The position numbers are program-made. A stretch of DNA of 61,412 nucleotides from a virus (lineage: Duplodnaviria > Heunggongvirae > Uroviricota > Caudoviricetes), in IMG/VR virus record IMGVR_UViG_2563366956_000010; one strand, given 5' to 3'. Positions 26,901 to 32,900 of this stretch are shown here, piece after piece. How positions within the stretch are numbered: the first letter of the stretch is position 1; each line of letters opens with the position of its first letter.

Positions 26901-29900
26901 CGAGGCCCACTTGCTTGCACAAGCGAGGGGATTTTAGCGGATAAACGGCATGACAAAACATCTTAATGTGGTTTCTTTACCACTTTCTGTGTTGATTGGT
27001 TATGAAAAGAACGCTCGCACACACTCCGTGGAGCAGGTAGATCAGATTATTGCCAGCATACAGGAGTACGGATGGACTAATCCGATCCTGATAGACGAGA
27101 ACAACGTTGTAATTGCTGGTCATGGTCGAATTGCTGCGGCCACTCAGTTGGGGATGGATGATGTTCCCTGCATTGTTCTGGCTGGGCTAACGGAGAATCA
27201 GAAGAAGGCATATCGTCTGGCCGACAACCGTATTCCGCTGAATGCTGGTTGGGATGAAGAGTTGTTAAGCGCGGAGCTTGCAGATCTTGCGGCCGATGAT
27301 TTTGCTCTGGACTCAATTGGTTTTACTCAGCGCGAACTGGATAACTTATTGAGTGCGGCGGTCTACGATGACACAGAGGGTATGGATATCCCATTTGAGA
27401 AGGATGAGGCCAAATCAGGCGTAAAAGTTCAGTACCTGTCATTTGGAGGTCATAAAATCCCGGCAACGGATGAGGAAGCGGATCGTTTTGACTGCGCGGT
27501 GTCTCGTTATGTTGATGATAATGGCAGCTATATCGGATTTGTATCCGCATTGCTGGCTGGGGAGGTGTGCTGATGCTTCACCTCAATTACGACATAACGC
27601 ACCTACGCGGCGCGGAATATAACCCGCGTTTTATCGGTGAGGATGATCTTGCGAGGCTGGCGGAAAGCGTCAGGGAGCTGGGGCTTGTGAAGCCATTGAT
27701 AGTGCGCGGCGATTTGCTGGTGGCGGGACACCAAAGGACGAAGGCGCTACGTAAGTTGGGAATAACGCGTGCTGCGGTGTATGTGTTGCCCTGTGAAACG
27801 ACGGTATACGACGAAGTACGGTTTAACCAACTGCATAACGGAACGGATTTTGATAGCGGAGATGAGCGTTGCAGGGTGTCCGGTCTGGAAGATAAGCATG
27901 GTTTTGTTCAGGTATCGGCAAGCCAGATCTCAGGCAATATGCGCGCGAAAATGGCATATGTTCGAAAGAACATAGCGGAACTGGTTATCAAGTATGGTCC
28001 GTGGGGTGGTTGTGTTGCTACTCAGTCTGGTGAGGTTATTCACTGTGCTCAGTATGCATTAGCAGCGAAAATGACGCGCACACCGCTAACGGTGTTTGTG
28101 ATCCCTGATGTTGAGAAGGAAAAATACCAAAGTTATCTGAATAAAACTTATGGTGTATTTGAGTATTCTCATCTGGAGAAAACAACATACATCCAGACGT
28201 ATGCGCAGCTTATGCGGTTGCGTAATGGTGGCAGCCTGAAATCAAATCTGTATGAGTCGTTGATCCTCCCGATCGTTGCCAAGACGCCAAGAGGAATTGA
28301 TTTTGGTTCGGGGCAGGGAGACTACGCGCGAATGCTCAGGGCAAAGGGATATAACCTGCATGATCTTGAGCTTTTTCGCCGTAAGGGCGCTGGAAACACT
28401 CTGGATAGGGCTGCAACAAACCGAATGATTGATACGCTGGTGGACGACTTAAAAACGCGAGGGCGTTACGACTACGTGATTTGCGATAGCGTTTTGAACT
28501 CGGTCGATAGTGTCGAGGCTGAATGGTCCGTTCTGACGGTTCTGAAAGGCCTGTGTAAAGCTGGTGGGTCAATATTCTTTTCTGGTCGTAGCCGTGGAGA
28601 GCTGGAAACAGTCCTGAAGCAAACACAAGCGGCGAGTTCCAAAAGCCGGCTTTATTTTATTGATCATAACGGTTTTACCGCGTTGTACCGGAAGGGGCAC
28701 TGGTTTTACCAGAAGTTTCACTCTGATGATGAAGTGAAGCAGTTGTGTCGTGTACATGGTTTCAGGATTAAGCGGTCAATATTCAACTGTAATAGCTGGT
28801 ATTTGCACGTCATTAACGATGATTCCCTTAGTTGGGCGAGTCTGGAGAAAGCTGTTCGTTTTGAGTTTGAGTTGCCGTTGCCTGGTGGTTCAACAATCGG
28901 ACGATCTGATGATGTGCTGGCGGCTTTCCGGCCGTTGATTAAGTAGTGTGTAGGAGGCGCTGGTGGCTGACAGAATTGAGATAAAGATGGATTTTTCTTC
29001 TCAGGATATTCAACGACAACTCCAGCGCCTTGAAGAACGCGAATTGCCGTTCGCAATGGCGCTTGCGGCAACCAGAACGGCAAAGGCTTCTCAGGCTGCG
29101 ATTAAGAATGAAATTAATCGGGTATTTGACAGGCCCACGCCGTGGATTCAGAACTCTACTTACGTTTTGGCCGCAAAGAAGAGTGATCCTACAGCCATTG
29201 TGTATGCTCGTGAATGGGGAGGAACGCCAGCCCCTGTAACGTTGACTCCGCAAATCGAAGGTGGCCAACGACAGTACAAACGCTCAGAAGGGGCGCTAAG
29301 GGCTGGTGGATATTTGCCTAACGGCTGGCAGCTTGCTCCTGGTCCCGGCGCAAAGCTGGACAAATACGGGAATATTTCGCGGGGGCAATTACAGCAGGTC
29401 TTATCTGGCCTAAGAGTTCAGCGAGATGCGCATCAAAATCGCCGTCAGGGCAAGCCTACGGAGTTTTTTGTTGTTCGACCTGGTACAAGTAACCCGCTTC
29501 AACCAGGCGTCTGGCAGCGCGTTGGGCGGCGTCCTACGTTGATCCTTACGTTTATCCAGCAACCTAACTATTCGCAGCGTCTTGATTGGCATGGCGTGGC
29601 GCTGCGTGCTGGTGAGGATGCGTTTGCTGATGAAGTCACAAAGGCTATTGATGACATTCTTTCTAAGACCTTCTCTCGTTAATCATCGTGTGGTTGATGG
29701 TGTTGTTATGCAGAGTGTATTCACTGTGTTCTGTAGCGTCGCTCGCTGGCTGTCTGTGGGGGAGCACGAGCATCGTTTCATCGTCCGGCAGAATTGGGTC
29801 CTTCTGGCCAAAAGCGTTGGATGCGGGTCATTCGAACCCCGATATTCGGCTAGCTAAACGTGAAAAAAGTTAGGTTAAAAGTTGCGGTAAAAGAAATTTA

Positions 29901-32900
29901 CTCATCTCATTGAAAAATATCGGGAAAACGTGATTTTTTCTGTATTTGTGCTGGTAAAAAGAAAGTGGAAAATTTTCTTTTAGATCATCAAGATACGCGC
30001 AGATCTTTAACCAATGTGATGTTGTTCTGATAAAAATCGTTATAAATCATGCAAATACATCCAATCTTTTAACCAAAACACCATCGCAAGATCCTTTTTA
30101 CTTATAAAAACTTAATAAAATCAGATAATTATGCTGGTTTGTGTGATTTTTCATGAGTAAAAAGATCGTCATTTTTCTCTTTTAGTATCAATAAGTTAAA
30201 CAGTTTTCTTTAACCTGTTGTGTTATGGCGGTTAAAAAATGGCTCTAAAAATCGAATATTTACCAGTCGGTAAGTTGCTCAGATATGCCAAAAATTCACG
30301 GACTCATTCAGATGAGCAAGTTGAACAGTTGGTGAACAGTATCCGTGAGTTCGGTTTCACTAATCCTGTGCTGATCGATGAAAAGAATGAACTGATTGCG
30401 GGGCATGGGCGGCTTGCAGCAGCCGAAATTCTGGAAATGGATAAAGTTCCGGCGATTCGGTTGAGTAACCTTTCTGAAAAACAGAAGAAGGCTTACAGGA
30501 TTGCAGATAACAAGCTGGCCTTAAATGCTGGCTGGGATATGCAGCTTCTGGCCGAAGAAGTCAAAGAGTTAATGGATGATGATTTTGATATTGATCTGCT
30601 TGGGTTTAATGATGCAGAGCTTGACGAAATGTTAAGCGATGAACAGCCGCAGGAAGAAGACGATAATTCTTCCCCTGTTGTTCAAATTAAGTACCTGGCT
30701 ATTGATAAAGAACGTATTCCCGCGACGGATATGGAAATTGCATTGTTGCTGGATGTTTATCGTCAGTACCACGACGCGCATGAAACGCATGAGGGATTTG
30801 TTCAGTATCTTGCTAATGGTTGCAAGTAATGGCCATCGTCAGTAAGTCAGAGTTTGCCCGCCGGAAAGGTATTTCTCCGGCAATGGTTACGAAGCTCTGT
30901 TGTTCCGGTCGCATTCCAGTGCTGAAAAGCGGCAAGCTGGATTTTGATAAAGCCAGTGCGGCTTATGAAGCGAGCCGACAGGTTGGTCGTGAGGTATCTG
31001 CTGAAAATGGAAAAAGAGGGCATGGGATATCTTCGGAACAACCAGAGTTACCCGCTGATGATGCCGGATTAGCTGGTGGTACTTCCGGTGTTGCGGTGCA
31101 ATTCAACAAGGCTAAGACCGCAGAAAAAATTTATCAGGCAAAGCTGAAACGCCTTGAATTTGAAGAAAAGGAAGGCTCTCTCATCGCTAAAGATGCGGTC
31201 AGGGATGATGCATTTCTGGCAGCTAATGAATTGCGTAGCCGCTTATTTAGTATTGCTCCAAGAGCAGCTCCCCGTTGTGAAGGCAAAACAGCCAGGGAGA
31301 TCGAGCGCATTATTGAAGACGAGATTAATTTTGCGCTTCAGGCGCTCCAGGAATCCCGATTTATTAAGCAGGAAGAATAAACCTCATGGGCGAAACAGTA
31401 TGGAGCACCGCTTTTTTCCGTGCGCTTCGCCCTAAATCACGGCTAACTGTTTCCGAATGGGCTGATAAGTATCGTCATGTAGCGCCGGGAACGTCTCCAG
31501 AGCCAGGGCCGTGGCGTACAAGCCGAGTGCCATATTTGCGTGAACCAATGGATGTTATTGGTGACGCTGATACAGAAACAGTAGTGATGCAATGTAGCTC
31601 GCAAATTGGTAAATCCGAATTACAGCTAAATGTTATGGGTTACTTTGCAGATCAGGAGCCATCTCCTCAGTTGATGATTTATCCAACGGTAGAGGCGGCT
31701 GAGGCTTTTTCAAAAGAGCGTATTGATCCGACGTTCAAATATTCCCCTGGTTTGAAACACAAGCTGCATGAAGGGAAAGAGGGGCGCGGTGCAGCCAAAA
31801 AGTCCAGCACGACTATACGTATGAAGCATTACGCTGGTGGATATATAGCACTTGTTGGTGCTAATTCCCCAGCAGGTCTTGCATCCAGGCCAATTCGAAT
31901 ACTGTTAGCTGATGAGATTGATCGTTACGGTGTGACGCAGGAGGGCGACCCACTAAAACTAGGTATTCAGCGTACTACCAACTTTCATAATCGTAAGAAA
32001 GTTTTTGTTTCTACTCCTGTTTTGGAGGAAACAAGCAAAATCCACAAGTGGTTTAAGCTCTCCGATCAGCGTTACTACCATGTTCCTTGCCCATGTTGTG
32101 GCACCATGCAGGTGATGAAATGGTCGCAAGTCAGATGGGATAAGAGCGATTCAGGTGAGGCGTTACCGGAAACGGCCAGATATGAGTGCTGTGAGTGCGG
32201 CGGGATTATGCGCGGATCTGGTAAACCAGACGTTGATTGGTTGGCGAAGGGGGTATGGATAGCTGAACATACTGGAGTTAAAGGTATTGTTGGTTTTCAT
32301 ATTAACAGTCTTTACTCCCCGTGGGTTGCATTGTCAGAGCTGGTTGAAGAATTTACGGAAGCAACCAGAAACCGCGATAAAAATGGATTAATGGAGTTTA
32401 TTAACCTTAAGCTGGGTGAGCCATGGAAAGAGGATGCTAAAGACGATATCGATCCTGAATACTTGTTGCAACGCAGAATAAGGTTTGAAGAGTTTTTACC
32501 AGATGATGTTTTATTGTTAAGTGCTGGTGTTGACGTACAGGACACGTATTTAGTTTGTGAATTGGTCGGTTGGGGAAAAGGTAAGGAGTCATGGGGGATA
32601 GAATATAAAATATTCCCAGGTGATCCCGCACAAGATGTTGTCTGGAAACAACTTGATGAATACTTACTCCGTAGCTGGTCATTCCGTGACGGTCGAAAAT
32701 TACAGATTTCTTCCGTTTGTATTGACTCTGGTGGGCATTTTACGACAGAGGTATATCGCTTTACTAAGCCGAGAGAATCAAGGCGAATATACTCTATCAG
32801 GGGGCGTGGTGGGGTAGGTTTACCATTTATAGGAAAGCCAAGTAATAATAACCGTGTGGGTGCTATGTTGTTTAATTTGGGGGTTGATGATGGTAAAGGG

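Follow-up and report, generated by a model that had tools for sequence, protein, structure and literature searches.

A small ParB-fold protein and its ParB-methyltransferase neighbor form a conserved gene pair beside the packaging genes of an Escherichia coli phage-plasmid

ParB-fold proteins upstream of the terminase genes

IMG/VR record IMGVR_UViG_2563366956_000010 is a 61,412-nucleotide (nt) stretch of viral DNA, referred to here as the window, that contains an E. coli phage-plasmid of about 47.7 kb. Directly upstream of the terminase genes of this element lies a cluster encoding three proteins with ParB folds, one of which also carries an S-adenosylmethionine (SAM) methyltransferase domain. 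The genes and sites at the locus are as follows, with protein lengths in amino acids (aa).

26950..27573, plus strand: ParB207, a small acidic ParB-fold protein of 207 aa (open reading frame, ORF; phrog_620 at 1.2e-73; ParB_N at 22.9 bits)
27573..28946, plus strand: ParB-MTase, 457 aa (Pfam Methyltransf_23; phrog_5475 at 9e-265)
28963..29682, plus strand: p239, an HK97 gp10-like neck or tail-completion protein of 239 aa (gp10-like fold)
29826..29837: candidate cosN, with the 12-nt cohesive end GGTCATTCGAAC inside the conserved block GGGTCATTCGAACCCCG (phage record breaks and conservation)
29873..30237: cosB-like array of five YTTTAACC repeats between the candidate cosN and ParB196 (5 of the 10 copies in the window)
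30239..30829, plus strand: ParB196, a second small acidic partner ParB of 196 aa (ORF; the first gene after cos)
30829..31380, plus strand: small terminase subunit (TerS; phrog_57 at 3e-41, with an N-terminal Cox-like helix-turn-helix match), its start codon taken from the annotation of a near-identical plasmid
31386..33242, plus strand: large terminase subunit (TerL) of lambda gpA type (GpA_ATPase at 7e-76, GpA_nuclease at 1e-84)

The three ParB-fold ORFs that the initial annotation placed within 4 kb upstream of the terminase were confirmed, and the TerL that follows them is of the lambda gpA type. ParB207 and ParB196 are paralogs, as had been proposed, with 49% identity and a GHGR motif at residues 57 and 55, respectively. 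The N-terminus of ParB-MTase is 25% identical to the two small proteins and carries GHQR at residue 52. ParB207 consists of an N-terminal domain of the nucleoside triphosphate (NTP)-binding type, which contains GHGR, followed by a very acidic linker and a C-terminal domain (CTD) of approximately 55 aa. With the Pfam profile ParB_N, ParB196 alone scores above the cut-off of 26.3 (33.7 bits), and ParB207 and ParB-MTase fall just below it (22.9 and 24.3); the ParB fold of the latter two is backed by their PHROG matches (phrog_620 and phrog_5475) and by a family-profile match to a solved ParB/Spo0J (2.8e-08). The ATG at 27573 is the most likely start of ParB-MTase, since it overlaps the ParB207 stop codon by one base (TGATG) and yields the N-terminus MLxLxYDI that is typical of the family. 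A GTG at 27567, which would give the 459 aa originally assigned to this protein, is less likely.

Each of the three ParB domains retains the phosphate-binding residues, namely the Box I Arg of N-x-R, the Box II Arg of GxxR and the Box III Asn, and these are invariant within the family. In all three, the residues for cytidine triphosphate (CTP) hydrolysis are swapped, with Box I Gln replaced by Asn and Box II Glu by His; the roles of this Gln and Glu in canonical ParB are summarized in PMC13229309. The Pfam matches of the ParB proteins include no helix-turn-helix family, and reading of the N-termini revealed no ParA-binding motif of the form [LFI]G[KR]G[LFI]. Of the 186 positions of TIGR00180, the small ParBs matched only 20-98, with scores of 16-40 bits where the cut-off is 58.45, and searches of PADLOC and NCBIfam returned no specific family for the cluster proteins. 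The small proteins are acidic (pI 4.3 and a net charge of -20 for ParB207, pI 4.5 for ParB196) and ParB-MTase is basic (pI 9.1).

As initially annotated, ParB-MTase is a fusion of a ParB-like domain to a class I methyltransferase. Its ParB domain (YNPR, GHQR, FNQLHNG) is followed by a middle domain and by a SAM methyltransferase domain of the UbiG/Methyltransf_23 type, for which the Pfam profile (PF13489) scores 31.5 bits against a cut-off of 27; the middle and methyltransferase domains are both basic. SAM motif I, DFGSGQG, begins at residue 243. Across the family the pattern DFGxGxG, the acidic residue of motif II (E266, at the end of beta2) and the motif after beta4 are invariant, and in ParB-MTase the residues after beta4, CDSVLNSVD, follow the pattern of UbiG and Methyltransf_11-23. 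An AlphaFold 2 model of the protein was predicted with high scores (pLDDT 92.9, pTM 0.89), and the top 50 Foldseek matches to it are all class I methyltransferases. On these grounds the methyltransferase looks active, with a chemistry that is unreadable from homology. We also considered whether the middle domain is a degenerate second ParB fold, as the order of secondary-structure elements repeats at an offset of about 105 residues, but a profile-profile comparison gave the idea no support (hhalign probability below 1%).

A two-gene module and its place in phage genomes

ParB207 and ParB-MTase make up a conserved two-gene module. ParB-MTase matches phrog_5475 ("unknown function") from end to end and has more than 700 homologs at 45-70% identity across the Proteobacteria; its profile matches, at E<=1e-30, 308 representatives (50% identity) out of a library of 1.84 billion. 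Among the matches listed, nearly all are 450-490 aa long with one full-profile match each. Gene neighborhoods were surveyed in nine individually examined contigs and 77 IMG/VR loci, and pairing was counted in the 62 loci with enough upstream sequence. In the surveyed contigs and loci, a small ParB of 186-250 aa is found directly upstream of ParB-MTase: the two genes adjoin or overlap in 54 of the 62 loci, are separated by up to 1 kb in 7, and in a single locus the small ParB is missing. Metagenomic and genomic contigs alike show this gene order. The module is present in both Proteobacteria and Bacteroidota, in chromosomal prophages and in phages that are not plasmids, and Bacteroides phage BS-TP3 has the identical order of ParB, methyltransferase, TerS and TerL. 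A relative of ParB-MTase in a Brochothrix phage (27% identical) stands alone.

Two natural fusions, P0363 and P0366 (658 and 659 aa), join a small ParB, with both its nucleotide-binding domain and its CTD, to a whole ParB-MTase. Proteins that occur fused in this way are classically taken to work together. The CTD of the small ParBs, about 55 aa with the consensus L.FG...IP.T..E...L......YV..NG...GFV..LL., is detectable even when the N-terminal domain has diverged, and in cultured phages it is restricted to this lineage. It was found only in partners of ParB-MTase. The charge complementarity seen in the window is family-wide, with a median pI of 4.6 for the small ParBs and 8.8 for the ParB-MTase family.

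The module also keeps a characteristic place. The first large ORF downstream of it, 0.3-3 kb away, codes for TerL in at least 48 of the 62 loci, and the genes upstream are usually lysis genes. At least four terminase families are involved (gpA in 21 loci, Terminase_6 in about 21, Terminase_3 in 7 and TerL_ATPase in 4; the counts partly overlap), and the contexts include cos-type, P22-like and Mu-like terminases. The slot ahead of the packaging genes is therefore kept whatever the packaging chemistry. This speaks against the module being a mechanical part of any one type of terminase and would fit a function exerted on DNA while packaging takes place. Position has to be read with caution, as accessory genes often occupy the interval between lysis and terminase genes. 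In a related lambdoid contig of E. coli type (L014), for example, positions 5997-6233 directly upstream of the small ParB hold a gene for an Acb2/Tad1-hairpin protein, an anti-CBASS/Thoeris sponge.

ParB196 is an addition to this arrangement. Genes of its type, located between the methyltransferase and TerS, were confined to relatives with a ParB-MTase of 70% identity or more to that of the window (L018-L023). In a neighbor-joining tree ParB196 is nested within the clade of methyltransferase partners, beside the partner from another locus (L065, 52% identity), and it retains the partner-type CTD; this placement and the CTD mark it as a duplicated or acquired extra partner. Its stop codon shares one base with the start of TerS (TAATG), an overlap by which the two genes are predicted to be translationally coupled. 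The density of ParB domains that had first appeared unusual is thus peculiar to this lineage: only the third copy is out of the ordinary, and the module normally comprises two ParB genes side by side. An MT-A70 methyltransferase encoded upstream in the window was considered as a partner of ParB196 and found unsupported, as a relative at 70% identity (L023) has ParB196 and no MT-A70 within 7 kb.

The 556 nt between p239 and ParB196 form a candidate cos site with putative TerS-binding repeats, read by analogy with cosN and cosB of lambda. Two Yersinia phages, vB_YpM_39 and vB_YpM_41, have database records that break at 29825/29826, and the record of vB_YpM_44 breaks at 29837/29838, 12 nt apart within the block listed above; the records are flagged circular. 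No other part of the intergenic region is conserved as well as this block in relatives at 90% and 70% identity. We did not use the record ends of vB_EcoM-473R2 and vB_EcoM-613R2, which are prophage-prediction boundaries. The YTTTAACC array probably represents binding sites for the small terminase, and in the relative at 70% identity 11 of 25 TTAACC copies fall within the equivalent 660 nt, with the consensus TTTGTTAACC. Phage vB_YpM_44 lacks 88 nt of this region (window 29965-30052, containing two GATC and one TTAACC repeat) and yet was isolated as a viable phage, so the repeats are not all essential. The AT-rich GATC-repeat region described here in the initial annotation did not hold up. The region has four GATC within about 180 nt, a density also reached at three other places in the window, and the tetranucleotide is under-represented in the window as a whole (191 found versus 230 expected); what the region holds instead is the candidate cos with its TTAACC-core repeats.

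The last gene before cos, p239, had been taken as an additional member of the cluster without a recognizable function. It encodes a structural neck protein and lies outside the ParB module. p239 shares a gp10-like fold with the HK97 gp10 family (the 80alpha/SaPI1 neck, PDB 9mu2 chain P). It differs from HK97 gp10 neck proteins and lambda gpZ-like tail completion proteins in having double the length, insertions and a long C-terminal helix. It has no significant sequence match, and its gene lies away from those for the other head and tail proteins.

Related systems and possible functions of the pair

The architecture of ParB-MTase has been catalogued before. Kaljevic, Sukhoverkov, Johnson, Hocher and Le (PNAS 2025) listed the ParB-CTPase-Methyltransf_23 fusion as a phage-enriched architecture whose function was untested there, and they reported that ParB folds bind free NTPs including ATP and GTP, with ATP binding for folds fused to SAM methyltransferases (PMC12704722). 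A ParB-Methyltransf_23 fusion was purified in that study for NTP-binding assays and an R to A pocket mutant was built as a control; membership of its two purified proteins in the exact ParB-MTase family could not be confirmed. ParB-MTase agrees with this fusion class, and with phrog_5475, in having PF02195 and PF13489 in the same order on one phage or prophage polypeptide of about 460 aa with a conserved GxxR. Whereas the survey handled the fusion as a single protein, the small-ParB partner, the three-part fusions, the position beside the terminase, the charge complementarity and a third gene of about 145 aa described below are not part of it.

A second comparison concerns the small partner. 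In the 5mYOX176/ParB176 system (PNAS 2026), a short ParB without a DNA-binding domain is the obligate and cognate-specific activator of a phage thymine dioxygenase on double-stranded DNA (PMC13229309). ParB207 resembles ParB176 in its layout, a short nucleotide-binding domain plus CTD with no DNA-binding domain, and in being encoded beside an enzyme. The 5mYOX enzyme, however, is an Fe(II)/2-oxoglutarate dioxygenase that lacks a ParB domain of its own, whereas ParB-MTase is a SAM methyltransferase that has one, which makes a ParB-ParB heterodimer conceivable. A two-gene arrangement of similar form is found in the type IV restriction system of E. coli ECOR17, where GmrS1 and GmrSD2, a ParB_N-only protein and a ParB_N-effector fusion, are both required (PMC12373910). 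That doublet differs from the phage pair in its ParB subfamily (DUF262), its HNH nuclease effector and its role in host defense.

Among proteins related through these ParB domains, the closest carry the domain fused to an N6/N4 DNA methylase or to MT-A70. The first ~135 residues of ParB207 and ParB196 share 40-58% identity with the N-terminal ParB domains of phage N6/N4 DNA methyltransferases (phrog_498, Bce_0392 type), and the small ParBs match phrog_498 and PADLOC MTase_II at 1e-37 to 1e-52 (phrog_498 at 1e-50; MTase_II at 1e-37 to 1e-40). The phrog_498 enzymes, including those of the Bacillus cereus Bce_0392 type, are beta-class amino-methyltransferases with a DPPY-type motif; ParB-MTase lacks this motif, and the small ParBs lack a catalytic domain. 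A further pairing occurs in E. coli prophages such as Escherichia phage vB_EcoS-673R7 (L097, 3489-5205), in which a gene for a 263-aa ParB, about 58-61% identical to the small ParBs in its N-terminal domain, overlaps a gene for a 310-aa TET-associated DNA glycosyltransferase (TAGT; PF20691, 1e-34). This pair lies between lysis/trkG genes and TerS/TerL, and the same 263-aa ParB gene is found in at least nine other E. coli or Salmonella phage records; no TET/JBP gene was visible near the TAGT gene in the 7.4 kb that were read. Of other leads from the literature, Gifsy-1 STM14_3218-3220 and VarioGold proved irrelevant, and Serratia phages bear only on the MT-A70/Dam point taken up below.

Taken together, the ParB-MTase pair is a widespread, uncharacterized variant of an emerging class of ParB-assisted nucleic-acid-modifying systems. 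The explanation that we favor, tentatively and at somewhat less than an even chance, is that ParB207 regulates or directs ParB-MTase on a nucleic-acid target, most likely phage DNA. We infer nucleic-acid modification from the relatives that are fused to or paired with DNA-modifying enzymes and from the published ParB-activated systems. In the mechanism we propose, the two ParB folds would engage each other, as the N-terminal domains of ParB do upon nucleotide binding, and this engagement would switch on or direct the methyltransferase. Its substrate would be a nucleic acid, and most probably the DNA of the phage itself, after replication and shortly before it is packaged. Because the enzyme has a catalytic pocket of the small-molecule/RNA methyltransferase type, its chemistry would be other than N6-adenine, N4-cytosine or C5-cytosine methylation. 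ParB196 would be a later duplicate or acquired copy of the partner that serves the same enzyme or has taken on a role linked to packaging. A more explicit version is possible but doubtful: a nucleotide-dependent ParB heterodimer, with ParB196 as a second regulator, would load or switch on the UbiG-like enzyme, which would place a methyl group at a site that no known class of DNA methyltransferase modifies, such as a ring nitrogen or oxygen or the backbone, and this mark, made at packaging, would protect phage DNA in the next host.

Several observations weigh against modification of phage DNA by a ParB-switched enzyme. The initial annotation had noted the lack of a DPPY-type motif in the fusion, and this holds for the family: none of 40 ParB-MTase members has [DNS]PP[YFWH] or PCQ. 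With all DNA-methylase motifs absent from its catalytic domain, the protein is not a standard characterized DNA methylase. Its structural and profile neighbors, from Foldseek, a phmmer search of the PDB and a PDB profile search, are UbiG, Trm9, METTL6, glycine N-methyltransferase and, weakly, Hen1, and they include no DNA methyltransferases. Given a UbiG/Trm9-like fold without DNA-methyltransferase motifs, a small molecule, a nucleotide, RNA or protein is a plausible substrate, and the nucleic-acid substrate is one that we infer wholly. The phage, judged by how the near-identical plasmid is annotated, encodes no further hypermodification functions from which an unusual acceptor base might arise. 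Since the residues for CTP hydrolysis are replaced, switching may not operate as in ParB, and in the 5mYOX system mutations in the NTP pocket of the ParB did not eliminate activation (PMC13229309). The near-universal adjacency to terminase genes could point to packaging instead.

A last point of this kind concerns a third conserved gene. In 47 of 72 loci it directly follows ParB-MTase, 11 times on the opposite strand, and it encodes a His/Cys-rich protein of about 145 aa with invariant W, K, HC, Y.CGV, N.H and CRN(F/W)QF, and it yielded no Pfam, PHROG or meaningful PDB match. Examples among loci L028-L089 are:

L028, 1610-2041: third-gene protein
L033, 8361-8804, minus strand: third-gene protein

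We found no homolog of this gene anywhere in the window; the system here could thus lack a component or function in another way.

It is unlikely, in our judgment, that the pair is instead an anti-defense effector acting away from phage DNA, either by methylating a nucleotide, a signal molecule, RNA or a host protein, or by being packaged in the capsid and injected to protect incoming DNA in the manner of P1 Dar/DdrB. Kaljevic et al. suggested an anti-defense role for phage ParB-methyltransferase fusions, and the binding of free NTPs by ParB folds would suit one (PMC12704722), as would a methyltransferase fold of the small-molecule/tRNA type; the basic enzyme and the DNA-modifying partners of related ParB domains, however, favor a polymer as substrate. 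P1 DdrB has a ParB-like domain and is packaged into heads (PMC5512222), but no capsid-targeting or processing domain is evident in the proteins studied here, nor is there a match to a PADLOC or anti-defense family beyond the ParB domain. The sponge gene of Acb2/Tad1 type directly upstream of the module in the lambdoid contig speaks for defense-related company, although expression beside late genes would come late against early-acting signals.

We consider a role as packaging accessory quite unlikely. By this account, which is modeled on the HNH proteins of HK97-type terminases, the ParB proteins would help the terminase to recognize, bridge or nick cos or pac DNA, with ParB196 as the partner of TerS and the pair acting at the right end. 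The cluster does lie on both sides of the candidate cos, with ParB196 first after it and overlapping the TerS start, but ParB196 is confined to one narrow lineage and so cannot be generally required for packaging. The frequency with which a large terminase is the first large ORF downstream is offset by the range of those terminases: the module precedes gpA-type cos, Terminase_6, Terminase_3 and Terminase_1/TerL_ATPase enzymes and also occurs in a Mu-like context, and with packaging chemistries this different a shared mechanical role is unlikely. ParB-like genes are found at the genome ends of several unrelated phages and some ParB-fold proteins nick DNA (reviewed in PMC5512222). The small ParBs studied here, however, are very acidic and without a DNA-binding domain, the invariant SAM-binding site would have no obvious role in packaging, and the slot between lysis and terminase genes commonly holds accessory genes, such as the Acb2-type gene mentioned above. 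Of the three roles that the initial annotation had offered, DNA modification or protection is thus favored by the comparative evidence (the phrog_498, MTase_II and TAGT relatives), and anti-defense has been weighed above. Packaging-site recognition is weakened for the pair, because it occurs with cos-type, P22-like and Mu-like terminases alike, and would be possible for ParB196 only.

That the three proteins are centromere-binding ParBs that segregate the phage-plasmid, as suggested by deposited records labeled "chromosome (plasmid) partitioning protein ParB" and by an element maintained as a plasmid in 78 of 79 E. coli matches, is highly improbable: they include proteins of only 196-207 aa with an N-terminal TIGR00180 match far below its cut-off, neither a helix-turn-helix domain nor a ParA-binding motif was seen, parA, with a small gene next to it, is some 13 kb distant in the region for plasmid maintenance, and the same genes occur in non-plasmid phages and in integrated prophages, the latter without parA.

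The phage-plasmid that carries the cluster

Alignment showed that window positions 12038-61320 represent the entire plasmid pMB9698_3, circularly permuted, plus an insert of 1.56 kb. The annotation of pMB9698_3 combines repA, parA and a toxin-antitoxin pair with a P2-like contractile tail and lambda-like head and terminase genes, which identifies the element as a phage-plasmid. The 3.9-kb cluster region is 99.4-99.6% identical to circular plasmids of about 47-49 kb in 72 of 5,426 complete E. coli genomes, with 78 of the 79 matching places plasmid-borne, and it is equally close to Yersinia phages vB_YpM_39, vB_YpM_41 and vB_YpM_44 and to Escherichia phage vB_EcoM-613R2. The parA gene of the near-identical plasmid (24572-25225 there) corresponds to about 13.5-14.2 kb in the window.

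The phage-plasmid is not free-standing in the window, as positions 1-12037 and 61321-61412 lie outside it. Positions 1 to about 9020 match a microcin B17-type plasmid region (McbB, SagB/ThcOx dehydrogenase, YcaO and an ABC transporter), which is followed by a Tn3-family transposase up to 12037. Plasmid positions 23106-23110 are present at both phage-plasmid junctions as a 5-bp duplication, and this duplication and the transposase suggest a Tn3-mediated cointegrate. The insert relative to pMB9698_3 is at 52448-54010 and is flanked by a 5-bp duplication of plasmid positions 15801-15805. It contains an ORF at 52595-53455 on the minus strand for a 286-aa protein, which we take to be TEM-1 beta-lactamase; if so, this copy of the phage-plasmid has an antibiotic-resistance gene aboard.

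Upstream of the ParB cluster the window encodes a further methyltransferase:

24379..24966, plus strand: stand-alone MT-A70 DNA adenine methyltransferase (Pfam MT-A70 at 3e-23; phrog_359 at 1e-102; DPPW at residue 13)

This gene is near the ParB module in close relatives only and is a neighbor outside the conserved module; bacterial members of the MT-A70 family have been reported to be Dam-like and GATC-specific (PMC7556043). A phage tRNA gene lies about 300-400 nt upstream of MT-A70 in the near-identical plasmid, annotated as tRNA-Ile there and as tRNA-Met in the Yersinia phage. An element of about 125 nt is present in three copies that are 96-100% identical (window 18012-18138, 24956-25090 and 57820-57940), each with an AT-rich palindrome, a promoter-like TTTACA-17-TATGGT and a conserved leader that runs to the ribosome-binding site and ATG of a plus-strand gene. 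The middle copy, between the MT-A70 gene and the block of genes running into ParB207, may control expression of the ParB cluster. Between 26.6 and 30.9 kb, a promoter scan gave fewer promoter-like sites than in shuffled sequence, and a terminator scan gave none that is convincing between genes.

These results correct the annotations "partitioning protein ParB" and "nuclease" in public records and place the cos site of this phage. They also bear on a broader development, in which ParB folds have recently been recognized as general nucleotide-binding modules that phages attach to DNA-modifying enzymes, with the thymine dioxygenase as the one experimentally tested partnership of this sort. The ParB-MTase family is widespread, and its methyltransferase cannot be assigned to any known chemistry of DNA methylation. 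Because phages nearly identical to this one were isolated on Yersinia pestis EV76, the substrate of the enzyme, the role of its small ParB partner and the effects of the module on restriction and packaging are directly testable.

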